A stretch of DNA of 35,613 nucleotides from Candidatus Parvarchaeota archaeon (GTDB lineage: Archaea > Nanobdellota > Nanobdellia > JAFCGN01 > DAOVEB01), in contig DAOVEB010000001.1 in the NCBI GenBank assembly GCA_030669205.1, positions 1 to 35,613 on the forward strand, written 5' to 3'. A program made the position numbers and the translations under genes. Of this stretch, positions 16,114-27,971 are shown piece by piece (position 1 is the first letter of the stretch; the number at the start of each line of letters is the position of its first letter). The notes under the pieces were generated by a model that saw only the letters and a program-made list of their open reading frames with translations, was not told where the DNA came from and made no database searches.

Positions 16114-16164
16114 CAAAAAACATTTAAATATGCGTTAAACATCTGGGTTCAACCGGTGTTTGTC

Positions 16165-16341
16165 ATGCCTGTTTGTGAGATTTGTGAGAACAACTCAATC
16201 GAGGTTTTCGAGTGTAAGAAGTGCGGTGTGAAGTTCTGCAGCAAGTGCGGAGACAGTGAGAGGGATATATGTGAAGACTGCCTCGACTATGAGAACGCTT
16301 ACCATTCTGGAATGTCGGGGGATGAAGAATCCTCCGACTAA
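16165..16341 (+). CDS. Small Cys-rich (4x CxxC) zinc-binding protein with acidic tail
   Basis: MPVCEIC...CKKC...CSKC...CEDC gives eight Cys in four CxxC pairs. TATA-like TTTAAATA at about 16131-16138. Confidence 0.55.
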   Translation: MPVCEICENNSIEVFECKKCGVKFCSKCGDSERDICEDCLDYENAYHSGMSGDEESSD

Positions 16342-16346
16342 TCAAT

Positions 16347-16358
16347 TTTTTTCTTTCA
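16347..16358 (+). terminator. Oligo-T tract (TTTTTTTCTTTC), candidate archaeal intrinsic terminator
   Basis: Run of 7 T begins 6 nt after the stop at 16339-16341. Confidence 0.35.
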
Positions 16359-16403: not shown

Positions 16404-16739
16404 ATGGTAGAATACAACGCTGAAAACCTGCCCTTTGCAAAAGCAGAGGTCGTCAGGTTAATGAAAGAACTGTTACCCTCAAACAGATGGGTAACCGAAA
16501 AAGTGAAGATTGAGGCGAATCTCCTCCTGTACAAGATATTAAAGGATATCACTCTGAAACTTGCAGAGGAGCCCTTCGCAACCATCAACTATGCCATGTT
16601 CAATGAGGCGGCGATGAAGTATGATAGGTTGGATGAAATCGAGGCTGAGAAGACCCGCATCATCCGCTCAATCGAAAAGATAAAGGCGGACTGTGACGTT
16701 CTGGCGGAAGCGGTTGAGAGGAAGTTCAAACAAGATTAA
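16404..16739 (+). CDS. Histone-fold-like protein with C-terminal coiled-coil extension
   Basis: LPFAKAEVVRLMKELLP...VTEKVKIEANLLLYKILKDITLKLAEEP.ATINYAMFNEAA follows the CBFD/NFYB/HMF helix-strand-helix spacing. The usual basic RKT loop is FAT here. About 40 extra helical residues follow. Confidence 0.5.
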   Translation: MVEYNAENLPFAKAEVVRLMKELLPSNRWVTEKVKIEANLLLYKILKDITLKLAEEPFATINYAMFNEAAMKYDRLDEIEAEKTRIIRSIEKIKADCDVLAEAVERKFKQD

Positions 16740-16797: not shown

Positions 16798-16863
16798 ATG
16801 TTGAAAGAGATATCGGCAGCTATGCTTTTATTGTTGCTGTTACCACTCGCACCCCTTTTCGGT
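16798..16863 (+). other. Signal peptide of the giant protein
   Basis: MLKEISAAMLLLLLLPLAPLFG: n-region with K, Leu-rich h-region, small residues before ERN. Confidence 0.7.
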
Positions 16864-19800
16864 GAGAGGAACATTGTGGTTCTAAATCCATATGAGACAC
16901 CAGAAGTTGGTGGGGGGTGGACGGTCCGCTTCGCAACCAACGGCACCGGACTTCTGAAAATCACCAACCTGTATCCCGACGACGTCGAGTTCAACTCTAT
17001 CTACAGCGCAGAGGTGTACGCAGATGTCAGCGGGGAGTGGAAGAAACTTGAGCCGCTGGTGTCTGGCAACACGCTCTACATCTTCTGGAACTACAACTAC
17101 GGAAAGGTCGTCTACCGCGTCTGGAAGAGGGGCTCGCACGAGCTGAGGTTTGAGTTCGGAAACACTGCCCACGCGTACAACGCAGCAGGCCAAGGAACCC
17201 AGAGGGAGTTCGTGCTGAACCTCACAGACCCCATCTTTCTCTACGAGCAAACCCATCTGAACACATCTGACGAGGGTGGATTCCGCTTCTCAGGCTCTGA
17301 AACGAGATACAGTGGTGTCTCACTCCCCAACAATATCACACTCATCTATGCTTACTTAAACATAACAGGTAGTATAACACCAACCAAAACTTCGTCACCA
17401 GGGGAGATCTATGACATAAAGATAGTAGATATACTGACCGACGCCCTAGAGGATGGAAATGAAACGGTTGTAGCTATCGGAGGGGGTGGAAACTACTACA
17501 CAAAGGTCCTTAACAACTCTTTTTATGAAAAAAAATCGTTCACTGCTGGAGACACAGTAAATGCAATCGACATTGCTAACATTGATCCAGACTTGCCAGG
17601 TTTGGAGGTTGTGGTAGGCTCGGACGACTACAGCGTCTACCTTCTGAACTACTCCTTAGTTGAAATATGGAGCAAGTCATCAAGCTATGTTATCAATGAC
17701 GTGGCCGCAGGTGAGTTAAACAGCACCTATAATGGACAGGAGATAGTTGCTGGATACGGTGGTGACAAGGTCACTGTTTTCAATATGACTGGCCAGACCG
17801 TTTGGACTATACAACCAGGTGGGGCTACAAAAACGGTTGCAGTTGGCGATGTTAACGACAGTGCAGGCAATGAGGTAGTTATTGGTTCTATCAACCACAC
17901 TATCATCTATGACTCGAAAGGTTCCCAATTATGGAACGAAAGCATACCCTCAGGCTTGATAAACGCCATTGACGTAGAAAACATATCTGGCGGCGCTTAC
18001 GAAGAGATAGTACTTGTTGACTCCCTTGGTTATCTGAGGCACCTAAACTCCTCAAGAAAATGGTGGAACACATATGTAGGCGGTAACTTGCTCTCTGTTG
18101 CTGCAGGAGAGATAGACAGCAGTTCTGACGGTCTGGAGATTGTTGTCGGTACAGACAATGGAGAGGTGAAGGCTTTCAATTCAACAGGGGGTTATTTGTG
18201 GGAGTACTCGGTTGGCACAACCAGAGAAGTTAAAGGGATTGATATAGGAAACTTTACAACCGAGGCAGGACAGGAAGTGGTTGTTGGTGTGAGGTTGGGC
18301 TCAGGTGACAACGTATACTCATTTAATTTTGACAACTTCCCCACAGAGTCCTACATAGAGATTGGCGGGGACCTCTCATCAGAGTGGGACTGGGTCAACG
18401 GGAGCAAGTTCAGGGGTAATGGTGAGATAACCAACGGGAGTATGTGGGGGAACATCTCTGACTACATGGACACGTGCGACGCCTGGCTCTGTGACGTCCC
18501 GTTCACAGCGAACTCAACATATGCAGGCGAGTTCGACTTTGACCTAAACGTGACGTACGACTACAACTTGAGCAGTGTTGTGAAAATGGAGTTGGTGAAT
18601 GTTTGGTCAAGGACATACGAGGTGAAAGTGAACGAGACAATGGGAAACCAGAGCTACAACATTTCATTCGAGATGAACCCGCAGGAAAGCCTGCTGGTCC
18701 AGCACGTCGTTCTGAACGAGACAGCGACCCTCTGCCACTTCAACAACACTGTTTATAACATGAGCGCGTCTGGTTGCGACGTGGCGGACTTCATAGTAAC
18801 GCCGACCAGCAGTCTGCCGCCATCGGCCTTGTACTGGGACAACAACATGTCGCGCACAATGCCGGTTGTGATAAATATGAGCGAGAACTTCTACGCCGCA
18901 CCATGGAAGCACAAAAACATAACAGTGAGGAACGACACAACACACGGACCAAACATCATATTCTACAACGTGACAGCAAATCTCAGTTTCGCCGGCCAGG
19001 GTTTCGCGAGTCCTATAACCTTCTCAGTTGACTGGTGGTCGAACGGCACCTTCTGGAACATAACTCCCTCAACGCTCACCGAAACTTGTAACACCACCTC
19101 ACCAACGTATGAGAGCAGGGTGCTTGGCGGCGAGACCTTCTTCATCTGCGGCCAAGACACAGATGGGGACGCGCAGCTGGATTACATAAAGTGGAAGCAA
19201 CCGCACACCTTCTTCAACGACTCGTCGCAAATAGATTACATGCTCAACGGAACCGGCAACACTCCACCGGTCTACTGGGTTGATAGTGTGGATGTCACAC
19301 CCTCCACTGACATCTGGGGCCATGTCTTCAACTTCTCAATCACTTTCAACGACAGCGAGGAGGACCCGGTGAACGCGACGCTCTACACTTGCACACCACT
19401 AACAGGATGCCTCGCAAACGAAACGCTCAACTCAACTTCAACAACAAACTACACCTTTGTGTGGAACATCACGTCCTGGAACGACTGGGTGAACAGCACA
19501 GCAAACAACTACTTCTACTTCGAGTTCAAGGACCCATACATAGGCTGGAACAGCACGGAGAACTTCTACGGTCCGGCTGTGGTCAGGAGGGACGCCATCC
19601 TTGAACCAATCACGAACGAAACAGTTGTGAACAGGACGGGCACAAACACAACCTATTTTCTCTTCAGGGTATACGACCCGAATGCAACGGACTATGTCGG
19701 CTCAGGCATAAGCTGTCTGGTGAACGTCACAGAAAACGGCTCCAACTATGACGATGGTAACCTTGATGTCACCAACCCATCCGGGGACTGCAACATAACC

Positions 19801-22800
19801 TTTGACCCAGACGGAAACTACTCGGTTGGTGTGCAGAAGTTCACAGTCGGGGTATTCAACAGCTCATACTACAACGACAATATCACAGAGATGTATGGCC
19901 TCGAGCTCGAGATATATGGCGACCTTGACGTGTCTCTGTCTGTTGACCCGACAGGCATAGTTGACAGGTGGAACAACAGCGATCGCCATGACTCGAACAT
20001 AACCTGGACGATATCCGGTGTCCAAGACGACAACGGCACAGACGTCTCTGGCTACACCGTCTGGCTCTACTGGCGCAACTCCCTGCTCAACACAACTGAC
20101 CAGAGCCAGGGGTTCATCGACATACCGGATGAAGCCCCACTGGACCAGTCCGACGACTACTTCCAAGTTGTCGTTGGCAAGCAGTACTTCAACAACCATA
20201 CCAACACATCAGCGGATTACCTAGTTGAGGGCAAGCTCAACTTCACGATTCTCACCCCGAACGGGAGCCAGGTTATGAGGACATTAGGAAGCCCAAACAG
20301 GCTAAACCTCACGATAAATGTGACGGACGAGCTCGGGAACAGCGTGGAAGACACCAACCTTGAAATAGTATGGTACATCCCGCCTGACGGTTGCATCAAC
20401 CTCTACAACAGCAGCGGCAACTACACCTGCGAGTTCAACCCTGGTCCAGCAACACTCGGTCTCTACAACTGGAGTGTCTTCGTCAACCGCAGCGACTATG
20501 ACTGGGTCGCGAACCTCACAGACTCGTGGATGCACATAAACGGCACGATGAACTTGACGATAATGACAACAACACCGTTCAACAGGACAGTTGAAAAGAA
20601 CATAGCAGCGAGGATAATGGATGAAGCCAAAAGCACAATAGTCGAGCAGGGGCACAACTGCACATGGTACATAGACGGTGCAGAGGTCGGAACAAGCTCC
20701 ACGAACAGCAGCGGCTACTGTGTCATGAACTGGACAAGCACATGTGGCGACCCCCTCGGCAAGCATACAATAAATGTCTCGATAACAGGGGTGAACAGCA
20801 GCTTCTGGACACCGATCACCGAGAACAAGACCCAGGTGCTCCACCTCATGGACGTATTTTATATCACCATCGACTCGCCAAACAACACCATAGTGCACAG
20901 GGGTGAACCATTTGACCTGAACGCGACTGTCTTTGACTCGTGTGGACCTGCAACTGGCTTCAACCTCACATGGTACAATGAGACCACCAACCTGACAGAT
21001 GGCACAGAGGTGAACAACACATGGACCATACCAGACAACTATAGACTCAACTATACCGAGATAAACACAACCGCAATCGGCGGCAACTACACGACCAATG
21101 CCACGTCCTTCTTCCTCAGGGTCTTTGGCTGGGCCGAGCCAATCTGGATTTCGCCGATGGACAACATAACATTCGGTGTTGAGTACAACCTAACCTGTCT
21201 CATAAGGGATAACACCACTCTCGAATTCATCTCTGGTTACAACGCGTCCTTCTGGCAGAATGAAACAATGCCACCTCCACATTCCGGGATTGACATCTTC
21301 ATAGGAACAGGTACGACAAATTCAACTGGCTACGCCCTAATGAACTGGACTCCGTTACACTACAGCGGCACATACGGCGTCATGTGCAACCTCAGCCATA
21401 ACGAGACCCTCTGGTATAACAACAGTGGTGTGGAAGCCTTAGTAGTCCTGCCTGTCTACGACAACGAACCTCCCAGTATAAATGAGACGCTGATAAGCAA
21501 CAAAACAGTTGAGGCAAACTACGAATACACATTGATATGGGCAAATGTCACAGATGATGTAGACATCGATATGGTCTGGGCAGAGATAGAGAACGACACC
21601 TCTGTTGAAAATATCACTCTCAACTTCAAGAGCGCCCAAATCATAGACGGGCACGTGCAGGAGGTATGGGACTATGAATATTTCCCACCAATCGGAGGAA
21701 TTTACAACGTCACTGTATGGGTCAACGACAGCACGAACCACACAGTATCCCAGTTTGTTGGAAACTTCACTACAATAGGCCACACAACTTCGGACCTGTG
21801 GGTGGCGACAGATGATGTCTACCACGCGGCGGATGAAGTGACCGAATATCCGTACGACCACGACACCTTCTGGCTCGACACGTACGTGAACAACACCGGC
21901 AACGGAACCATGTACAACATGGTGGTAGAGTTCACAGGACCTTCGGGTATCTACTTCAACGAGCAACCGACATACACAACTGACCAGACAAATGTAACAC
22001 CGGGTAGTAGCACAACTCATACCGCGGTCAATGTGAAGACAACAACGTACCCGCCGCTGGGCAACAACACAATAACAATAACCCTCAAGTGGCAGAATGC
22101 GAACCTAACAGACGGAGAAGTCGTGAATACCACATTGGTCGACCTCAAAAACATGACCTACATCGAACTCACAGACCAGGGTGCGGTCATACCTCCAATA
22201 GTGATCGATTATATTCCGAACGGCACATCGAGGATTTCCAAAAATATCACCATAGAGGCCTACGGCACAACAGAACTCTTGGACGTGAACATCACATTCG
22301 GCACCTGTGATATCTCCTCTTGGCTCAACTTTACGCCGTTCTGGGACATCTCGTACATCGGGAAAAATGAGCAGAACGCTACCGGCCTCAACGTCACAGT
22401 GCCTGCAGGCGAGTCGCCAGCCATAAGGACATGTGAGATAATATTCAATGCAACCGGCTCGGCAGAGGTCTGCGGAGGTCCGGGAGAGAGATGTGACAGG
22501 CAGTTCACATACGAACTCCATATAGTATCAGAGGAGTGGAATGTGACGCCTTTGCTTCTGAACAAGACCGTTGGTCAGAACTCGTTCGGCGCGATTGGAA
22601 CCATAAACGTAACCAACAGGGGAAACAACATACTGAGTTTCAATATGTCTGTCTTTGGCGCGGGTGGGAATGTCACAGCACATAACCTCACCACGAACGA
22701 CGAAATCAGCAACTTTACAGTGGGCCCCTTTGAAAGTGTGCCAGTACTTGCCCGATGGAATGCAACAGGCGCGGAGCCAGAGAATCACACAGCCGAGATT

Positions 22801-25800
22801 GTCTTTGACATCAACGACCCACTGAGAATCCCACAGCAGGAAAATGTAACCGTCTTCCTAAATGTAACAGACGTAACATTCAACATAGTTTGGCCGCATC
22901 ACTCCAGTCCAAAAACAAACGTAACAGAAGATGACGTAATAAACATCATAGTTGATGCTCAACTGGGCGGAACACCAATCGGAACGGGTGAAATAGAGTG
23001 GAGTGTGAGTGTCGGCGGTGAGTTAGTTGGAAGTATGGTTGAAGGGAGCGTGCAGTGTAATGTCATAAACGCTGTCTTCAACTCAATTGGCGATTACATG
23101 TGGAACCTGAACTGCACAGCCCCTCACATAGAAGGCAATGTCATAGACAACATGCTCTTTGTTGAAGGCAACATAACAGCGCAGAGCATAGTGACCAACG
23201 ACTATGAGCTGGACGCGGTTGTCTATAGGGACGTGACTGCCCCAAGGTTCACCGACATAAACAGCTCGTGTGTGCAACCAGGGGAGACATTCATACTCCA
23301 CTTCAACGTCACTGACAATACAGGAATAGCCAATGTCACTGCCACATTCCAGTATGAGGATAACGCGCCAACAAACATAACCGCAAACCTCTCCTATGAG
23401 GGAAACAATAGGTGGAACTGCACGCTTTACGGTCTCACTTCAGTAGGCGACTACTGGATAAACGTAACCGCAGTTGACACCAGCTCCTACCAACACAGGA
23501 ACAACACAGTTGTCTGGTTCGACGTCTTCAACCCAGTATACTTCGACGGCACCATGAAGGACCCATTGGATAACAACGTAACAGCGGTTTTCAACTTCTA
23601 TGTCCCATCATACAAGAGTAAGAATGGCGCTGTGCTTGCCCACACCTTCAACACATCACAGAGTGCGGAGTTCAACAGAACATTGCACAAGAGGGCATAC
23701 GACCTCGAAATCCTGGCGTTCAACCACACACTCGACTATTTCAACCTGAGCACAGACGTCCCGGACAGTAACATAAGTGACTATATAACTCTGGACAACC
23801 TCGATGCCAGCTCAATAAATGTTGACCCAGACATCACATACTACAGTGTCATAGGGGTCTACGTTGGAAATCTTCTCTCCTACAAATCAGCCGCAATCAG
23901 AATCAACTTCACAACAGCCACACCTTACGTAACCCATTATGGGCTGGGTGACTTCTACCCTACCAGGTTCAGGGTCTACAGGTGCGACAACTGGAACTTT
24001 TCATCTGTCTCGTGCAGCGGGTCGTGGACAAGCGCTGGTGGAATGGTTGACAACAACCCAGCATCACCCTACTACGAAACAGTCTATCTCACAACAACAT
24101 CGACCTCTGCCTTCGGCCTCATACAATGCGAAAGGGATGACTGTGCCGGACCGCCTGAACCACCAGGTCCTGGTCCAGGTCCTAGTCCAAGTTATCCCCC
24201 AAGCACAACAACCGTGTGCGGCAACGGCATCTGCGAAACCGGTGAAAACTCCGAGAACTGCCCGCAGGACTGTGGGGAGGCCGCACTCCAACTTGGTGCT
24301 GAGACAACGCTGTCCGAGGTGTACATGAAACCAGGCGAGAACAGGACCTTTACACTCACCATAAGCAACACACACACCTCAACAAAGAGCGTCTATGTGG
24401 CGATATCCGGAGAGATAATGAATTACATAAAACTCGGTGAGACCTTTCTCAACATACCCGGACAGTCGTCAAGGACGATTCAGATGGTGGCAACCATACC
24501 TATGGAAGCCGAACCAGGGGCCTATACAGGAGACATAATTATAACCTCTGAAGGCAGGAGCAGGCAGGTTCCGGTCACGCTGATAATCAGCTTGGAGGGC
24601 GCGACGTCCCTCCAGCTCGCGCTCAACGCGCTGACCAAGCAGGTCTCTCCTGGGGAAACGTTCAAGTTCAACCTCATAATATACGACCTGGGTCTTGTGA
24701 AGGTCGTTCCAGTCAACCTGACATACAACGTGAAGGACGTGGCAACTGAGAGCATCACTGCCCAGGTTGAGAAGAGCATGGTCGTCGAGTCCACCCAATC
24801 ACTGATAGAATCGATGGATATACCTGAAAACGCGTCGCTCGGCAACTACTTGATAGAAGTCGTTGCCGTGTATTCAAACAAAACCGTGTCAGCAATCGAC
24901 CAGTTCGAGATAGTGTTGCCATTTTGGACACCTGAGCGCATAGGCATTGCCCTAATATTCATCATAGCGATCAGTGGCACGATGCTGGCGTACTACGGCA
25001 GAAAGAGATATATGGAGTGGAAGTTTGAGCGGGCCAAGTATATCTTCCCAATCAGTTACAGGGCGCTGCCGATGAAGAAAGAGAACTCAATCTGGCTGGG
25101 TAAGATTGCTGAGACAAACAGGAAGGCGTGGTTCTATCCAGACCTGATGACTACACACGTGCTGGTAAGTGGCTCGACTGGAAGCGGCAAAAGCGTGGCA
25201 GCATCCATAATAGCAGAGGAAGTCCTCGAAAAGAAAATACCAGTCATAGTCTTTGACCCAACAGCCCAGTGGACAGGGTTTGTGAAACCATGCACAGACA
25301 AAAAGATGAAGGAGAACTACATTTCCTTTGGGCTTGGTGAGAACGATGCGAGGCCCTACAAAGGAATGATATTTGAGGTCGATGACCCTAACACCTACAT
25401 CGACATAAAAGAGTACATGAACCCTGGAGAGATAACTATATTCACGCTGAACAAACTAAAACCAGGCGAATACGACACTGCTGTATGGAACATCGTTGAC
25501 TCAATCTTCTCGATAAGTTGGGAAGAATCAACCGAACTTAAGATGATAGTCGTCTTTGATGAGGTCCACAGGCTGCTTGAGAAGTATGGCGGTCGTGGGG
25601 GTTATGTCGCCCTTGAGAAGGCGGCTCGTGAGTTCCGTAAGTGGGGTATTGGACTGGTGATGGTCTCCCAGGTGTCAAGTGACTTCAAGGAGGCAATCCA
25701 AGGCAACGTTTTGACAGAGGTACAGATGAGTACCAAATCGATGACAGACATAAAGAGGATAGAAAGCAAGTTTGGTCCTGATTTCGCCAAGCGCATATCG

Positions 25801-26118
25801 CGTGAAGCCGTAGGCGTCGGCATGCTCCAAAATCCAAAGTTCAACCGTGGAAAGCCTTACTTCATAGAGTTCAGACCAACAAAACATTTCCCACACAAGC
25901 TGCCTGACAAGGAGCTGGAGATGTACAAAGATTTCACCGCCAGGCTGGAGGTTGTGGAAGAGCTCATCTCACAGAAAAAGAGAAAAAGAGAGGACGTTAT
26001 GGACTATCTACTGGAGCTCAAGCTTGCGAAGGAGAAGCTCCATAGCGGAAGGTTCAGGATGGCAAAGATATACCTTGACTCGCTTGAGCAGAAACTTGGT
26101 GTAAAAGATGCCAGTTGA
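16798..26118 (+). CDS. Giant (3,106 aa) type I membrane surface protein with a cytoplasmic HerA/FtsK-type P-loop ATPase domain
   Basis: Uninterrupted 9,321-nt ORF. Contains a signal peptide, FG-GAP-like propeller, sequon-rich Ig-like tract, Pro hinge with Cys module, CARDB-like domains, one TM helix, Walker A GSTGSGKS, Walker B VVFDEVH, and GIGLVMVSQ. Confidence 0.95.
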   Translation: MLKEISAAMLLLLLLPLAPLFGERNIVVLNPYETPEVGGGWTVRFATNGTGLLKITNLYPDDVEFNSIYSAEVYADVSGEWKKLEPLVSGNTLYIFWNYNYGKVVYRVWKRGSHELRFEFGNTAHAYNAAGQGTQREFVLNLTDPIFLYEQTHLNTSDEGGFRFSGSETRYSGVSLPNNITLIYAYLNITGSITPTKTSSPGEIYDIKIVDILTDALEDGNETVVAIGGGGNYYTKVLNNSFYEKKSFTAGDTVNAIDIANIDPDLPGLEVVVGSDDYSVYLLNYSLVEIWSKSSSYVINDVAAGELNSTYNGQEIVAGYGGDKVTVFNMTGQTVWTIQPGGATKTVAVGDVNDSAGNEVVIGSINHTIIYDSKGSQLWNESIPSGLINAIDVENISGGAYEEIVLVDSLGYLRHLNSSRKWWNTYVGGNLLSVAAGEIDSSSDGLEIVVGTDNGEVKAFNSTGGYLWEYSVGTTREVKGIDIGNFTTEAGQEVVVGVRLGSGDNVYSFNFDNFPTESYIEIGGDLSSEWDWVNGSKFRGNGEITNGSMWGNISDYMDTCDAWLCDVPFTANSTYAGEFDFDLNVTYDYNLSSVVKMELVNVWSRTYEVKVNETMGNQSYNISFEMNPQESLLVQHVVLNETATLCHFNNTVYNMSASGCDVADFIVTPTSSLPPSALYWDNNMSRTMPVVINMSENFYAAPWKHKNITVRNDTTHGPNIIFYNVTANLSFAGQGFASPITFSVDWWSNGTFWNITPSTLTETCNTTSPTYESRVLGGETFFICGQDTDGDAQLDYIKWKQPHTFFNDSSQIDYMLNGTGNTPPVYWVDSVDVTPSTDIWGHVFNFSITFNDSEEDPVNATLYTCTPLTGCLANETLNSTSTTNYTFVWNITSWNDWVNSTANNYFYFEFKDPYIGWNSTENFYGPAVVRRDAILEPITNETVVNRTGTNTTYFLFRVYDPNATDYVGSGISCLVNVTENGSNYDDGNLDVTNPSGDCNITFDPDGNYSVGVQKFTVGVFNSSYYNDNITEMYGLELEIYGDLDVSLSVDPTGIVDRWNNSDRHDSNITWTISGVQDDNGTDVSGYTVWLYWRNSLLNTTDQSQGFIDIPDEAPLDQSDDYFQVVVGKQYFNNHTNTSADYLVEGKLNFTILTPNGSQVMRTLGSPNRLNLTINVTDELGNSVEDTNLEIVWYIPPDGCINLYNSSGNYTCEFNPGPATLGLYNWSVFVNRSDYDWVANLTDSWMHINGTMNLTIMTTTPFNRTVEKNIAARIMDEAKSTIVEQGHNCTWYIDGAEVGTSSTNSSGYCVMNWTSTCGDPLGKHTINVSITGVNSSFWTPITENKTQVLHLMDVFYITIDSPNNTIVHRGEPFDLNATVFDSCGPATGFNLTWYNETTNLTDGTEVNNTWTIPDNYRLNYTEINTTAIGGNYTTNATSFFLRVFGWAEPIWISPMDNITFGVEYNLTCLIRDNTTLEFISGYNASFWQNETMPPPHSGIDIFIGTGTTNSTGYALMNWTPLHYSGTYGVMCNLSHNETLWYNNSGVEALVVLPVYDNEPPSINETLISNKTVEANYEYTLIWANVTDDVDIDMVWAEIENDTSVENITLNFKSAQIIDGHVQEVWDYEYFPPIGGIYNVTVWVNDSTNHTVSQFVGNFTTIGHTTSDLWVATDDVYHAADEVTEYPYDHDTFWLDTYVNNTGNGTMYNMVVEFTGPSGIYFNEQPTYTTDQTNVTPGSSTTHTAVNVKTTTYPPLGNNTITITLKWQNANLTDGEVVNTTLVDLKNMTYIELTDQGAVIPPIVIDYIPNGTSRISKNITIEAYGTTELLDVNITFGTCDISSWLNFTPFWDISYIGKNEQNATGLNVTVPAGESPAIRTCEIIFNATGSAEVCGGPGERCDRQFTYELHIVSEEWNVTPLLLNKTVGQNSFGAIGTINVTNRGNNILSFNMSVFGAGGNVTAHNLTTNDEISNFTVGPFESVPVLARWNATGAEPENHTAEIVFDINDPLRIPQQENVTVFLNVTDVTFNIVWPHHSSPKTNVTEDDVINIIVDAQLGGTPIGTGEIEWSVSVGGELVGSMVEGSVQCNVINAVFNSIGDYMWNLNCTAPHIEGNVIDNMLFVEGNITAQSIVTNDYELDAVVYRDVTAPRFTDINSSCVQPGETFILHFNVTDNTGIANVTATFQYEDNAPTNITANLSYEGNNRWNCTLYGLTSVGDYWINVTAVDTSSYQHRNNTVVWFDVFNPVYFDGTMKDPLDNNVTAVFNFYVPSYKSKNGAVLAHTFNTSQSAEFNRTLHKRAYDLEILAFNHTLDYFNLSTDVPDSNISDYITLDNLDASSINVDPDITYYSVIGVYVGNLLSYKSAAIRINFTTATPYVTHYGLGDFYPTRFRVYRCDNWNFSSVSCSGSWTSAGGMVDNNPASPYYETVYLTTTSTSAFGLIQCERDDCAGPPEPPGPGPGPSPSYPPSTTTVCGNGICETGENSENCPQDCGEAALQLGAETTLSEVYMKPGENRTFTLTISNTHTSTKSVYVAISGEIMNYIKLGETFLNIPGQSSRTIQMVATIPMEAEPGAYTGDIIITSEGRSRQVPVTLIISLEGATSLQLALNALTKQVSPGETFKFNLIIYDLGLVKVVPVNLTYNVKDVATESITAQVEKSMVVESTQSLIESMDIPENASLGNYLIEVVAVYSNKTVSAIDQFEIVLPFWTPERIGIALIFIIAISGTMLAYYGRKRYMEWKFERAKYIFPISYRALPMKKENSIWLGKIAETNRKAWFYPDLMTTHVLVSGSTGSGKSVAASIIAEEVLEKKIPVIVFDPTAQWTGFVKPCTDKKMKENYISFGLGENDARPYKGMIFEVDDPNTYIDIKEYMNPGEITIFTLNKLKPGEYDTAVWNIVDSIFSISWEESTELKMIVVFDEVHRLLEKYGGRGGYVALEKAAREFRKWGIGLVMVSQVSSDFKEAIQGNVLTEVQMSTKSMTDIKRIESKFGPDFAKRISREAVGVGMLQNPKFNRGKPYFIEFRPTKHFPHKLPDKELEMYKDFTARLEVVEELISQKKRKREDVMDYLLELKLAKEKLHSGRFRMAKIYLDSLEQKLGVKDAS
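17401..18336 (+). other. Seven-blade FG-GAP/PQQ-like beta-propeller region (aa ~202-513)
   Basis: Seven repeats of the pattern [D/G-x-acidic loop]-E-[IV]-V-[VA]-G followed by a strand ending in W or N. Examples: GNETVVAIGGGG, GLEVVVGSDD, GQEIVAGYGG, VAVGDVNDSAGNEVVIGS, YEEIVLVDS, DGLEIVVGTDNG, GQEVVVGVRLG. Confidence 0.65.
18337..24147 (+). other. About 1,900-aa beta-rich tract of repeated Ig-like modules, saturated with N-x-S/T sequons
   Basis: Recurrent module ends such as SGYCVMNWTSTCGDPLGKHTINVSITG, TGYALMNWTPLHYSGTYGVMCNLS and GNYTCEFNPGPATLGLYNWSVFV resemble bacterial Ig-like (Big/invasin-type) domains. Module boundaries not resolved by eye. Confidence 0.55.
24148..24273 (+). other. 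Proline-rich hinge (GPPEPPGPGPGPSPSYPPS) followed by four-Cys module CGNGICETGENSENCPQDC
   Basis: Read directly from the translation (aa 2451-2492). Confidence 0.8.
24280..24912 (+). other. Two membrane-proximal CARDB/COG1361-like beta-sandwich domains
   Basis: VYMKPGENRTFTLTISNTHTSTKSVYVAISGE...PGAYTGDIIITSEGRSRQVPVTLIIS and VSPGETFKFNLIIYDLG...LGNYLIEVVAVYSNKT have the same pattern as the 2014-3108 and 30465-31478 proteins. Confidence 0.55.
24940..24999 (+). other. Single transmembrane helix of the giant protein (aa 2715-2734)
   Basis: IGIALIFIIAISGTMLAYYG followed by RKRYMEWKFERAK (positive-inside). Confidence 0.85.
25075..25917 (+). other. Cytoplasmic HerA/FtsK-superfamily (DUF87/COG0433-like) ATPase domain
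   Basis: THVLVSGSTGSGKSVAASIIAEEVLEKKIPVIVFDPTAQW (Walker A at 25171-25194), KMIVVFDEVHRLL (Walker B at 25543-25569), and AAREFRKWGIGLVMVSQVSSDF (the HerA-type RK.G.GL...SQ motif). Confidence 0.75.
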
Positions 26119-27100
26119 AAAGCAGACGATTTCGGGTAAGGAACTACTGATAAAGGTAGAGAAAGCAGACGTGCGCATTGAATCCATTGAGTCAAAACTA
26201 ACAGACATCTTCGACCACTTCTCCCAGATAAATGAGGAGATAGGGGAAATCCGCTCAATGGTGATAGAAAGGGAAAGGGGGGTTCTTGAGATGCGGACTG
26301 AGTTCGACAAGATGAAAGACGATGTATCACACGTTGAGCCGGAAAAGACTGCGAGAAGGATAGATAGTTTTGACCAGACCCTGCTTGAGACAGCAGCCAG
26401 GATAGAAAAAACAGAGGCCAAGGTCGAGGAGTTGAAAAACGGACTCGACGTCTTCAAGGAGAAGTTAAAGGGTATTCAGAGCACGGAGAACCTTCTCGAC
26501 CTCCTAAAAGAATTAGACGAGAAAGCAAGGAATGTAACCGAGTACAGCAATCACTCGGAGAGGATGGCCGCAAAGGCTGAGAAGATGTTCTTGGAGATAG
26601 ACAAAAGGCTTCCGGAGATGGAAAGTGCGATGGACAAAATCAATGACGTGGGTGGTATGGTAAACCAGATAGTAATGGATATTGACGCGATAAAAATAGA
26701 GTTGAAAACGGCCGTGCACAAAGAGGACATAAAGAGGATATGGGGCGAGATAGATGACATCAAAGGTATGCGGCCGCATAGGGAAGAGGCCATAACCAGA
26801 ATACCCAAAACAGGGGAAGTGTTGGAAATAGAACTCCCTGGAGAAGAGGTGCCAGAAATAATTGAAATTCCAAGACCTGTGACAGAAGAGAGTGAGACGA
26901 AGGAAGATGTGATTCCTGCCATGTTGGATGAGGCATATGGCTACCTGAAGATGGGGGGGAAGAGTTCTGCAATGCAGATATACCGGAAAGCCTTGGAAGA
27001 TTACAAGGAGATGCGAACGACCAACCCGATCAAGGCAGCTGACCACTATGAAAGGATAAACAAACTCTACAAGGACATCCTGGCCCAAGGGTCAAAATGA
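26108..27100 (+). CDS. Coiled-coil protein with acidic linker and C-terminal MIT/TPR-like three-helix motif
   Basis: Start overlaps the giant ORF end by 11 nt. About 220 aa of heptad-like helices, then an E/P-rich linker, then AMLDEAYGYLKMGGKSSAMQIYRKALEDYKEM...AADHYERINKLYKDIL. Confidence 0.75.
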   Translation: MPVEKQTISGKELLIKVEKADVRIESIESKLTDIFDHFSQINEEIGEIRSMVIERERGVLEMRTEFDKMKDDVSHVEPEKTARRIDSFDQTLLETAARIEKTEAKVEELKNGLDVFKEKLKGIQSTENLLDLLKELDEKARNVTEYSNHSERMAAKAEKMFLEIDKRLPEMESAMDKINDVGGMVNQIVMDIDAIKIELKTAVHKEDIKRIWGEIDDIKGMRPHREEAITRIPKTGEVLEIELPGEEVPEIIEIPRPVTEESETKEDVIPAMLDEAYGYLKMGGKSSAMQIYRKALEDYKEMRTTNPIKAADHYERINKLYKDILAQGSK

Positions 27101-27405
27101 AGCATGAATATATCTGCAAGAAATGCGGCTACAGATGGAGAAGTGATGGGGCGCGCTACTGTCTCAACTGCCACTCTGACCGGGTAGAAAGGCACTCCTC
27201 CAGCAGAAAACTGCTTCAGACCCTGAGGAAATTGTTCTCAACTGACAGAAGAAAATATCGAGATCAGTTCACCAAAGGACGCGAAAAGGCGATGGATTTG
27301 TTGGTTGACGTCTGGCACAGCGCAGCGACATTCATTTTTGTCATAGCGGTCTTCATCGCCCTCTTGCTGCTGATGTTCCTCCTGTCCCAAAGAGGTTTTG
27401 TCTGA
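27097..27405 (+). CDS. Tail-anchored zinc-ribbon protein
   Basis: ATGA overlap with the upstream gene. CKKCGYRW...CLNCHS zinc ribbon, a basic linker, and C-terminal TM helix AATFIFVIAVFIALLLLMFLL. Confidence 0.7.
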   Translation: MKHEYICKKCGYRWRSDGARYCLNCHSDRVERHSSSRKLLQTLRKLFSTDRRKYRDQFTKGREKAMDLLVDVWHSAATFIFVIAVFIALLLLMFLLSQRGFV

Positions 27406-27790
27406 CGAGTCTGATAATCTCCTTTGTCTTTCCTGATTTCAATCGCTTAAGCTTCCAGTTGCGACCTCCAACAACCTCAAGTTCGTAGTAGGAGAAGTTC
27501 AACACCAGAAGCACCGCACCAAAGACCCAACAGACAAACGCCAGAACAAGAAGGAGCGGTTCAAAGAAGGTCAGGTACACAAAAAGCACGCCGAATGCTA
27601 TGAGGGACGCGCCGAGACCACGGTTGTTCTTGGAACCTGTTCTTATGCCGGATATGCAGTCATACGGCAGGTCTGCGAAGTCCTCGCCCCCAAAGTGCTT
27701 GTCGTACTGTATCAAACGGCGATTGGTAACATAGTAGTTTCCTACGTTCAAAATCACCTTCTCTCCCTTTGTCAGGAAGTCCTCAACCAC
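27353..27790 (-). CDS. PH-like (bacterial PH/YdbS-like) membrane protein segment; no ATG anywhere in frame, possibly the 3' part of a frameshifted gene
   Basis: GEKVILNVGNYYVTNRRLIQYD...DLPYDCISGIRTG pattern, a TM hairpin, then YYELEVVGG..WKLKRL. The only candidate starts are GTG at 27790 or TTG at 27871. Confidence 0.5.
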   Translation of the reverse strand: MVEDFLTKGEKVILNVGNYYVTNRRLIQYDKHFGGEDFADLPYDCISGIRTGSKNNRGLGASLIAFGVLFVYLTFFEPLLLVLAFVCWVFGAVLLVLNFSYYELEVVGGRNWKLKRLKSGKTKEIIRLVRQNLFGTGGTSAARGR

Positions 27791-27794
27791 GATC

Positions 27795-27971
27795 TCACCT
27801 GAGAATCCAGTCAATGGTCGCAACCAGAACCAAGACTGCCGTGAAACCAGAGCCGATGATGCCCGTTGCAAGAGCTGCCCCGGTTACCCTTGGCATACCT
27901 GAGCCAGAACCTATAACTATCATGAATAGTGACAAGATTGCAATCAAAATAAACTCTCTGCCGAACTTCAT
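27795..27971 (-). CDS. 58-aa two-TM protein (MKFGREFILIAILSLFMIVIGSGSGMPRVTGAALATGIIGSGFTAVLVLVATIDWILR), possibly the 5' part of the PH-like gene
   Basis: Hand-translated. Its ATG overlaps the PRC-barrel stop (TAATG). It ends at TGA 27795-27797. It is below the track cutoff. Confidence 0.5.
   Translation of the reverse strand: MKFGREFILIAILSLFMIVIGSGSGMPRVTGAALATGIIGSGFTAVLVLVATIDWILR

Follow-up and report, generated by a model that had tools for sequence, protein, structure and literature searches.

What is the ATPase at the cytoplasmic end of a giant archaeal surface protein for, and do the genes that follow it belong to the same system? This question is raised by a stretch of 35,613 nucleotides from Candidatus Parvarchaeota archaeon (DAOVEB010000001.1, positions 1-35,613; here called the window, to which all coordinates refer), taken from a genome of 68 contigs and 0.91 Mb with a completeness of 87.6%. 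In the window, a gene for a 3,106-residue protein ending in a HerA-like ATPase domain is followed on the same strand by genes for a 330-residue coiled-coil protein and a 102-residue protein with a zinc ribbon and a transmembrane (TM) helix. An earlier analysis made without database searches (the sequence-only reading) had regarded the three as a candidate module with translational coupling, and the layout it described, with an 11-nt overlap between the first two genes and an ATGA overlap between the last two, is confirmed by the coordinates (Table 1). Comparison with related genomes indicates that the conserved unit comprises two genes, the giant ATPase gene and the gene of its coiled-coil partner, rather than three. 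We consider it probable that the locus represents a minimal form of a widespread two-gene module, in which a SPEARE-type giant ATPase is combined with a dedicated coiled-coil partner that would act as its scaffold or regulator.

This reading is carried by the genomic neighbourhood of the ATPase in two samples, one consisting of 40 relatives plus the source genome itself and one of 401 genomes of the same class. The first sample contained 11 strong ATPase homologues besides the window's own (E 1e-83 or better, 40-52% identity), located at the ends of reading frames of up to 12,056 aa. For eight of these 11 the best match of the 330-aa protein (P0001) is encoded directly downstream on the same strand. 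A ninth case was found with the profile of partner alignment A4, where the partner (G016:C1:134492-135424; handles give genome and contig) is encoded directly upstream of a 5,222-aa giant.

In the class-wide sample the ATPase domain was matched at 64 places in 43 genomes (E 1e-20 or better), and the core profile of the partner family, hereafter family Y, matched 55 genomes (A4, E 1e-5 or better). After three weak secondary rows of the Y profile had been left out, 33 of the 64 ATPase matches, spread over 30 of the 43 genomes, proved to be followed in the same orientation by a Y core at a distance of -7 to 2,354 nt. In three further cases Y follows 5.4-5.7 kb downstream, after a tandem second ATPase gene. 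Eleven of the 31 misses are minus-strand matches at most 2.4 kb from the contig start; their downstream DNA is missing and they cannot be judged. Conversely, 26 of the 59 Y rows used have no ATPase within 5 kb in the corresponding direction on the same strand. Ten of these 26 are weak f19-family rows (E 1e-10 to 1e-14) and were not counted as family Y; the one examined, in G114, is a 429-aa coiled coil amid housekeeping genes. The conservation of the coiled-coil gene's neighbourhood is far beyond chance. The sequence-only reading had expected a conserved triad, to be given up if homologues of the giant gene never adjoined its two companions. For the coiled-coil gene they do adjoin, and this part of the triad stands; the zinc-ribbon part is not supported, as described below.

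Over ~200 columns, fifteen partner sequences can be aligned with hardly any gaps; they are 18-28% identical, or 73-74% in the case of two close homologues, and they have in common an IGEIRS-type motif, a proline at a helix break and a K-x-E motif. Such an alignment together with shared motifs indicates that the homology within family Y is real and goes beyond mere composition. The 330-aa protein of the window shows the ~200-residue helical core and all three motifs, and its gene lies next to that of a membrane HerA-like ATPase, which places it in family Y. In its own genome the Y profile matches only two genes, each of them behind an ATPase paralogue (contigs C54 and C17). Scans of metagenome contigs for close relatives, with P0001 and with alignment A3, found no locus, and the ESM Atlas returned a single match, a hypothetical Nanobdellota cluster with a score of 0.76.

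The histories of the two genes also agree. The pairwise tree distances of 29 ATPase/Y pairs are correlated with r = 0.91, which none of 2,000 label shuffles reached, and the partner has evolved at about twice the rate of the ATPase. In either tree the window has G014:C1 and G000:C17 as its nearest neighbours. Furthermore, the two modules of genome G014 fall into separate clades in the ATPase tree and in the Y tree; since these paralogous modules split alike, species history alone would not yield the pattern. As judged from these comparisons, the giant's HerA-like ATPase has in the coiled-coil gene a genuine and conserved partner, and both appear to be inherited as a unit.

The giant itself has an N-terminal hydrophobic leader and a ~2,700-residue ectodomain rich in NxS/T sequons, including a PQQ-like beta-propeller (Pfam PQQ_2, E 5e-6), followed by one TM helix and the ATPase domain. 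Across the 22 aligned ATPase domains REFRKWG is invariant besides the Walker motifs given in Table 1. Pfam DUF87 (E 6.7e-10, 39.9 bits against a cut-off of 23.2) and HerA_C (E 6.2e-6, 25.6 bits against 22) both match the giant, and the best PDB match of the 22-sequence profile is Sulfolobus HerA (4D2I, E 8.7e-14), with defence HerAs next. In the same search DotL (8e-4) and FtsK reached only ~1e-3, and no VirB4 chain was found at E 0.01 or better. The Pfam models TrwB_AAD_bind, T4SS-DNA_transf and AAA_10 each stayed below cut-off, as did the NCBIfam HerA equivalog models, at 14.6-29.2 bits far below their cut-offs of 800-970. We conclude from the profile matches and motifs that the ATPase of the giant is a predicted intact member of the HerA clade.

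Table 1. Features of the giant ATPase locus and its surroundings (positions in the window)
Feature	Position	Strand	Remarks
Cys-rich gene	16165-16341		just upstream of the giant gene
111-aa gene	16404-16739		just upstream of the giant gene
Giant surface protein gene	16798..26118	+	3,106 aa; stop TGA 26116-26118
Single TM helix of giant	24940..24999	+	residues ~2715-2734; hydrophobic stretch, aligned with TM of 21 homologues
Predicted cytoplasmic HerA-clade ATPase domain	25003..26115	+	371 aa; alignment A5, 22 domains
Walker A of ATPase domain	25171-25194	+	invariant G-TG-GK
Walker B (DEVH) of ATPase domain	25558-25569	+	invariant DEVHRLL
C-terminal helix-Gly-helix hairpin of giant	26005..26097	+	conserved columns at the end of A5
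Coiled-coil partner gene, family Y	26108..27100	+	ATG at 26108; 330 aa
Overlap of giant 3' end and partner 5' start	26108..26118	+	11 nt
Helical core of partner	26153..26782	+	residues 16-225; aligned with 14 homologues; helical in the AlphaFold2 model
Acidic Pro-rich linker of partner	26768..26899	+	residues 221-264; predicted disordered, pLDDT <50
Three-helix TPR-like unit of partner	26900..27094	+	residues 265-329; pLDDT 75-85
Overlap of partner stop and 102-aa gene start	27097..27100	+	ATGA, 4 nt
Tail-anchored zinc-ribbon gene (predicted)	27097..27405	+	ATG at 27097; 102 aa
Zinc ribbon of 102-aa protein	27115-27171	+	CxxC-x11-CxxC at C7, C10, C22, C25
TM helix of 102-aa protein	27322-27387	+	hydrophobic stretch, residues ~76-97; 5 residues after

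The ATPase domain is matched by 311 long database proteins at E 1e-10 or better; the named relatives among them are mostly Aenigmatarchaeota, with 54-65% identity over the domain, and one is named Ca. Nanohalobium sp. (54%). The closest relatives carry the labels Aenigmatarchaeota or Anstonellales (55-65% identity), compared with at most 52% in 400 genomes of the own class. That closer relatives are found outside the class may mean that DPANN lineages have exchanged these genes, or that the sampling has gaps. Open frames ending in the same ATPase domain extend to 12,056 aa (G014:C3, with its 3' end in locus L047), 9,416 aa (G330:C10) and 8,055 aa (G221:C4), and thus represent very large genes for archaea. 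Tandem ATPase-bearing genes, 2-5 kb apart on one strand, occur on G176:C1, G246:C1, G309:C16 and G330:C10; three of these four pairs have a single partner gene, located behind the second ATPase gene.

A comparable architecture has been described for the SPEARE proteins, giant C-terminally anchored proteins of Nanohaloarchaeota, whose conserved cytoplasmic part was interpreted as a type III restriction enzyme and for which similar sequences in other DPANN lineages were pointed out (Hamm et al. 2019, PMC6642349). Neither "ATPase" nor "coiled" appears as a word in the main text of that paper (Hamm et al. 2019, PMC6642349). The original definition by laminin-G, protease and nuclease domains (Hamm 2019) was disputed by Reva et al. 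(2023, PMC10266531), where the cytoplasmic part was re-annotated as a VirB4/TraG-like ATPase that has a coiled-coil tip, a second ATPase gene, likewise VirB4-like, was reported downstream of the nanohaloarchaeal giants and a secretion "straw" was proposed. As far as these accounts describe them, the SPEARE proteins resemble the giant of the window in having a signal peptide, a huge ectodomain with a PQQ/WD40-like propeller and Ig-like parts, a single TM helix close to the C terminus, a P-loop ATPase conserved on the cytoplasmic side and a helical piece at the end. They differ in that the SPEARE accounts mention an internal coiled-coil tip whereas the window has a separate coiled-coil gene, in that a second downstream VirB4-like ATPase gene is absent from the window, and in that the best PDB relatives of the window's domain are HerA proteins, not VirB4. 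The giant has a weak match to ResIII, the basis of the original SPEARE naming; the 15 Pfam families matched at E<=0.1 include no laminin-G, protease or nuclease domain, in a single 3,106-aa scan of the kind that can miss divergent domains. The giant is best described as SPEARE-type, given that the layout fits and that its P-loop domain appears homologous to that of a nanohaloarchaeal giant, an assignment based on database relatives. No description of a separate partner gene was found in the literature searched, the scope of which ended before the supplements of Hamm 2019 and of the 2023 preprint.

Coiled-coil proteins (CCPs) specific to DPANN archaea have been described beside type-IV-pilus-like loci, with weak nucleoporin-like hits and a proposed role in host contact (Hamm et al. 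2023 preprint, 10.1101/2023.02.24.529834). The partner in the window is likewise a DPANN coiled coil and also has a weak match to Nsp1_C (Pfam, E 0.08). By their description, on which this comparison is based, CCPs are defined by CpaF/TadC neighbours and not by a giant ATPase.

The second gene had been read as encoding a long coiled coil, and the structure prediction, though of low confidence, agrees with this. The AlphaFold2 model (15 sequences; mean predicted local distance difference test score, pLDDT, of 63) is mostly helical, with helices at residues 10-74, 78-202 and 205-224 and the helix break at the conserved proline. Heptad (3.5-residue) periodicity peaks in residues 10-74, residues ~26-126 are handled as an antiparallel hairpin by fold aligners, and the coiled-coil matches in Pfam and NCBIfam are sub-threshold only. 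The core is followed by a linker and by a three-helix unit resembling tetratricopeptide repeats (TPR), which is found only in the window's partner and in its 72-73% identical relatives. Most other Y members have in its place a G-x-I-S-x-x-x-Y helix pair after the core, which we take to be SHOCT-like. The TPR signals of the C-terminal unit are weak (designed CTPR3, E 0.033; Pfam TPR_6, E 0.019, 16 bits against 26.3), and its fold matches to TPR-like parts (Z ~9.2-9.4) are non-significant, as is its superposition on the microtubule interacting and trafficking (MIT) domain 2w2u (template-modelling score 0.70, root mean square deviation (rmsd) 2.1 over 67 columns). Searching the whole partner against PDB with Foldseek gave no match at E 0.001 or better, and the wide fold search with VIA gave tied helical matches only; according to VIA's own note, helical models with Z below ~13 may show just a common arrangement.

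Encoding a ring ATPase beside a dedicated partner is a general pattern, known from HerA-NurA in end resection and from Sir2-HerA and DUF4297-HerA in defence. The ATPase of the window belongs to the same clade by profile, but it is membrane-tethered and fused to a giant ectodomain, it scores far below the NCBIfam HerA equivalog cut-offs, and its partner is a coiled coil without nuclease or Sir2 domain. Coiled-coil and helical-hairpin subunits, peripheral or central, are found on the cytoplasmic face of hexameric P-loop ATPases and are encoded next to them, as in FliH/FliJ with FliI and in the stalks of A/V-ATPases; no sequence or fold match of the partner to FliH/FliJ or to the stalk subunits was found, and the analogy is one of mechanism. 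In the module as we picture it, the locus would be the minimal form of a system widespread in this class of small-genome archaea. The giant would be a glycoprotein anchored by one TM helix, with a predicted catalytically intact HerA-clade ATPase as its cytoplasmic end, and this ATPase would assemble into a HerA-like ring below the membrane. The partner would bind the cytoplasmic face of the ring as a scaffold, stator or regulator, and its docking may use the conserved helix-Gly-helix hairpin at the C terminus of the giant. Residues 272-296 of the partner resemble this hairpin in their spacing (A-x3-L-x2-G-x4-A-x3-Y), a likeness seen by eye only that may be a lead to the docking site and nothing more.

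The third gene encodes what appears to be a Zn ribbon, as two CxxC knuckles are placed on a small beta structure in the AlphaFold2 model (strands 3-7, 13-16 and 30-32, pLDDT 80-86; mean pLDDT 72). The rest of the model is a long single helix (35-99) that continues into the TM segment. The first 75 residues contain 19 K+R against 9 D+E. This basic head and the 5-residue tail argue, by the positive-inside rule, for a tail-anchored protein with N-in topology. The proposal of a tail-anchored Zn ribbon with its soluble part in the cytoplasm is consequently supported by the CxxC pairs, the C-terminal TM helix and the basic head, its topology being predicted. Pfam Zn_Ribbon_1 remained below cut-off. 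Two homologues of the same length, 94% and 87% identical, differ by mostly conservative changes. In an exhaustive HMMER search of 1.84 billion representative proteins, six matched the 102-aa family at E 0.001 or better, five of which are distant full-length relatives of 97-114 aa; C7, C10, Y12, W14, C22, C25, W73 and F81 are invariant in the eight aligned sequences. This points to a real gene of a very small family.

Searches with the Zn-ribbon profile produced "matches" in 69 of the 401 class genomes, nearly all over the N-terminal Cys knuckles only. Two longer ones, in G373:C11 and G177:C21, both cross stop codons and were rejected. The match in G373 consists of a 48-aa Zn-ribbon open reading frame (ORF) and, beyond its stop codon, the beginning of the TM part of a large multi-TM gene, presumably an AglB-type oligosaccharyltransferase; the match in G177 lies at the same place before a homologous gene, and the one frame inspected is not open. 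A search with a three-sequence subset gave generic Cys knuckles only, in metagenome-assembled genomes (MAGs) of Desulfurococcales and Bacteroidales. We regard the 102-aa gene as a lineage-specific addition that is probably co-transcribed with the other two. That its product works together with the giant and the partner, for instance as a tether that keeps the partner at the membrane, is a reasonable possibility, although short of an even chance.

Annotation of 31 loci, 28 of which contain the partner, revealed considerable variation around the two conserved genes. In eight of these 28 loci the ATPase gene is directly followed, as in the window, by the gene of the partner or of a longer fusion form. 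The genes that intervene elsewhere belong to two unrelated families, X1 (6 loci), with a SHOCT-like motif and usually a Lys/Arg-rich tail, and X2 (14 loci, two of which, L071 and L080, are linked only weakly), of ~110-410 aa. An extra 119-aa ORF, the second intermediate in L076, belongs to neither. The two intermediate families are split by loci, L043-L049 and L063 against L065-L081. After the partner, six of the 28 modules (L043, L044, L047, L049, L050, L063) encode a ~300-aa protein, Z, whose single Pfam signal is a weak TrmB-type winged helix-turn-helix (E 0.15). Five loci (L045, L065, L068, L074, L081) have a large secreted protein directly after the partner, which exceeds 985 aa and is truncated where the locus ends; these second large proteins give "ATPase anchor plus separate giant" versions in which the two parts are split. 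Small membrane proteins without CxxC pairs follow the partner in four of the 28 modules, and unrelated genes do so in the other loci. The source genome has three ATPase paralogues and two partners, and X1 and Z were not found in it. Its third paralogue (G000:C49, locus L053), of 944 aa and without a partner gene, is followed by a 182-aa protein (L053 1914-2462) that has three TM helices and, at its C terminus, a Zn ribbon with two CxxC pairs. No similarity between this and the 102-aa protein was found beyond the Cys knuckle, so that the Zn ribbon behind the C49 paralogue is suggestive, but without homology to the 102-aa protein. On G000:C17 (L046 3812-4440) 88- and 109-aa helical proteins with a SHOCT-like G-x-[IV]-S follow a 687-aa fused partner, which belongs to the second module of the source genome. 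New in the window are a module without an intermediate gene, the TPR-like end of the partner and the small Zn-ribbon tail-anchor family.

In support of co-expression, no run of at least five T is present on the plus strand from the stop of the giant gene to the end of the 102-aa gene, except one within the TM codons of the latter. The absence of such a run between the three genes fits a single transcript. A GGTG is positioned 9-12 nt 5' of the partner's ATG. The flanking genes are ordinary chromosomal ones (phosphoribosyl pyrophosphate synthase, MgtE, an amino-acid permease, M50 peptidases, Leu-tRNA synthetase and L10e).

Several observations weigh against the module as we interpret it. Of the 53 ATPase matches for which a judgement is possible, 17 have no Y nearby, including the own-genome paralogue on C49. 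The congruence of the ATPase and Y trees partly reflects shared species history, and the likeness between the giant's hairpin and the partner's TPR-like unit is an unscored judgement by eye. The module in the window is also atypical in lacking an intermediate gene, as 20 of the 28 related modules have one or two genes, X1 or X2, between ATPase and partner. With regard to the third gene, the 28 related modules contain no Zn-ribbon homologue and the 400 other genomes of the class no true one, and its last 53 nt (27353-27405) overlap the 3' end of a convergent gene on the minus strand for a bPH_3-domain membrane protein (27353-27871). Gene overlaps, moreover, are frequent: by our own gene calls, seven of the 21 same-strand neighbour pairs in the window overlap; besides the pairs discussed here, four do so by 4 nt, one of them the functionally unrelated HAD hydrolase and Leu-tRNA synthetase. 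The overlaps at this locus alone are not beyond chance and constitute weak evidence for a module. The sequence-only reading had seen in them a sign of matched stoichiometry; as overlaps are this common, they tell little about it.

These observations bear directly on how the 102-aa gene is to be interpreted. It is quite conceivable, if not favoured, that it encodes a small membrane protein with no relation to the other two and merely occupies the 3' end of the operon in a tightly packed genome, and that only the giant and the partner belong together. The frequent overlaps between genes of unrelated function agree with this, as do the tiny size of the family, its absence from related modules and the occurrence of family Y without a Zn-ribbon gene everywhere else. 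The apparent shared transcript without a terminator-like T run between the genes speaks against it, and so does the predicted cytoplasmic, basic Zn-ribbon head, a module type that binds proteins or nucleic acids at membranes. The opposite extreme, a full three-protein complex in which the Zn-ribbon protein is an obligate subunit pinning scaffold and ring to the inner membrane face in matched stoichiometry, is rather doubtful. It would be consistent with co-expression, to which the ATGA overlap and the lack of an oligo-T run are suited, with a basic soluble part predicted to face the cytoplasm, and with the conservation of the gene at 87-94% identity in two close relatives. Small membrane proteins right after the partner in four of the 28 modules, and the 3-TM Zn-ribbon protein behind the C49 paralogue, could be regarded as counterparts; but the former are unrelated and lack CxxC pairs, the latter is similar only in its Cys knuckle, none of the 28 modules has a Zn-ribbon homologue, and overlap between unrelated genes is commonplace here.

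Two further explanations concern the function of the ATPase and of its partner. The sequence-only reading had compared the locus with the Ced DNA importer (CedA, CedA1, CedA2, CedB), and a transporter resembling Ced or a type IV secretion system (T4SS), in which the ATPase pumps DNA or effector proteins and the small genes provide channel or coupling subunits, would be in line with the VirB4/TraG-like naming and the secretion "straw" proposed for nanohaloarchaeal giants in Reva et al. (2023, PMC10266531). The likeness to Ced lies in a membrane HerA/VirB4-like ATPase with small partner genes, and there are weak sub-threshold matches to CedD, CedB, TraB, TrwB and T4SS-DNA_transf. All of these, however, are far below the curated cut-offs (NCBIfam CedB 17.3 bits against 700, CedD 46.6 against 600), and the 22-sequence profile favours HerA over DotL, FtsK and VirB4 by the values given above. 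Neither a polytopic channel gene such as CedA nor a two-TM CedA1/A2 gene adjoins the giant gene, whose neighbours encode a soluble coiled coil without a TM helix and a protein with one; the downstream second VirB4-like ATPase gene of Reva et al. is absent. The Ced comparison is not upheld, and we regard a transporter of this kind as quite unlikely. More improbable still is that the partner is a membrane-remodelling polymer of the ESCRT-III/PspA type, assembled or disassembled by the ATPase at the base of the giant fibre. The partner model does contain a helical hairpin with its tip near residue 76, and Vipp1, PspA and ESCRT-III chains are among its best fold matches (Foldseek 9eom, E 0.29; VIA 8qfv, Z 10.5, rmsd 7.1 over 201 residues; VIA 4whe, Z 9.6, rmsd 3.0 over 122 residues), to which the superposition of the C-terminal unit on an MIT domain may be added. 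None of these fold matches is significant, though: the ESCRT-III matches (Z 9.4-10.5) are equalled by those to many unrelated coiled coils, the model is of low confidence, and neither PspA_IM30 (PF04012, E 0.001) nor Snf7 (PF03357, E 0.01) had a match in the genome.

The two small genes just upstream of the giant gene, which had been named as possible further members, lie outside the module. Homologues of the 111-aa protein, which the sequence-only reading had labelled a histone fold and which has no match in Pfam, were found in 10 of the 40 relatives. Nine of these 10 lack a strong ATPase homologue (E 1e-80 or better), in the tenth it is located on another contig than the ATPase, and all other giant-bearing relatives are without it. 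Homologues of the Cys-rich protein were found in 23 of the 40 relatives, some of which have no strong ATPase homologue. In genomes with both, strong Cys-rich matches and giants are located on different contigs, and for one weak match, on G014:C4 (E 0.004), the distance to an ATPase gene is ~8.5 kb. Both genes thus occur independently of the ATPase, which argues against their membership. A TATA-like box, TTTAAATA, is located at 16123, ~40 nt before the Cys-rich gene, and a run of seven T follows at 16346 just after it; these signals (16123-16350) suggest a separate small transcription unit.

SPEARE-type giants, the most conspicuous genes of DPANN symbionts, are thought to mediate contact with the host. 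For the two-gene module of giant ATPase and coiled-coil partner, the dedicated partner argues against the ATPase being a stand-alone relic. A bolder version, which we hold to be unlikely, is that the giant fibre, the HerA ring and the partner, here with the Zn-ribbon protein, form a new envelope-spanning motor in which the ring, braced by a coiled-coil stator or an ESCRT-III-like polymer, pulls on, rotates or resets the megadalton adhesin by which the host is held. If true, such a motor would perform mechanical work on a surface fibre instead of transporting DNA or protein. The 102-aa protein belongs to a very rare tail-anchored Zn-ribbon family and is a candidate membrane tether. The co-evolving cytoplasmic partner may offer a small, expressible handle on the ATPase, through its binding, the regulation of the ring and its polymerisation, and the window, as the simplest version of the module among the loci compared here, would be a short route to its reconstitution.

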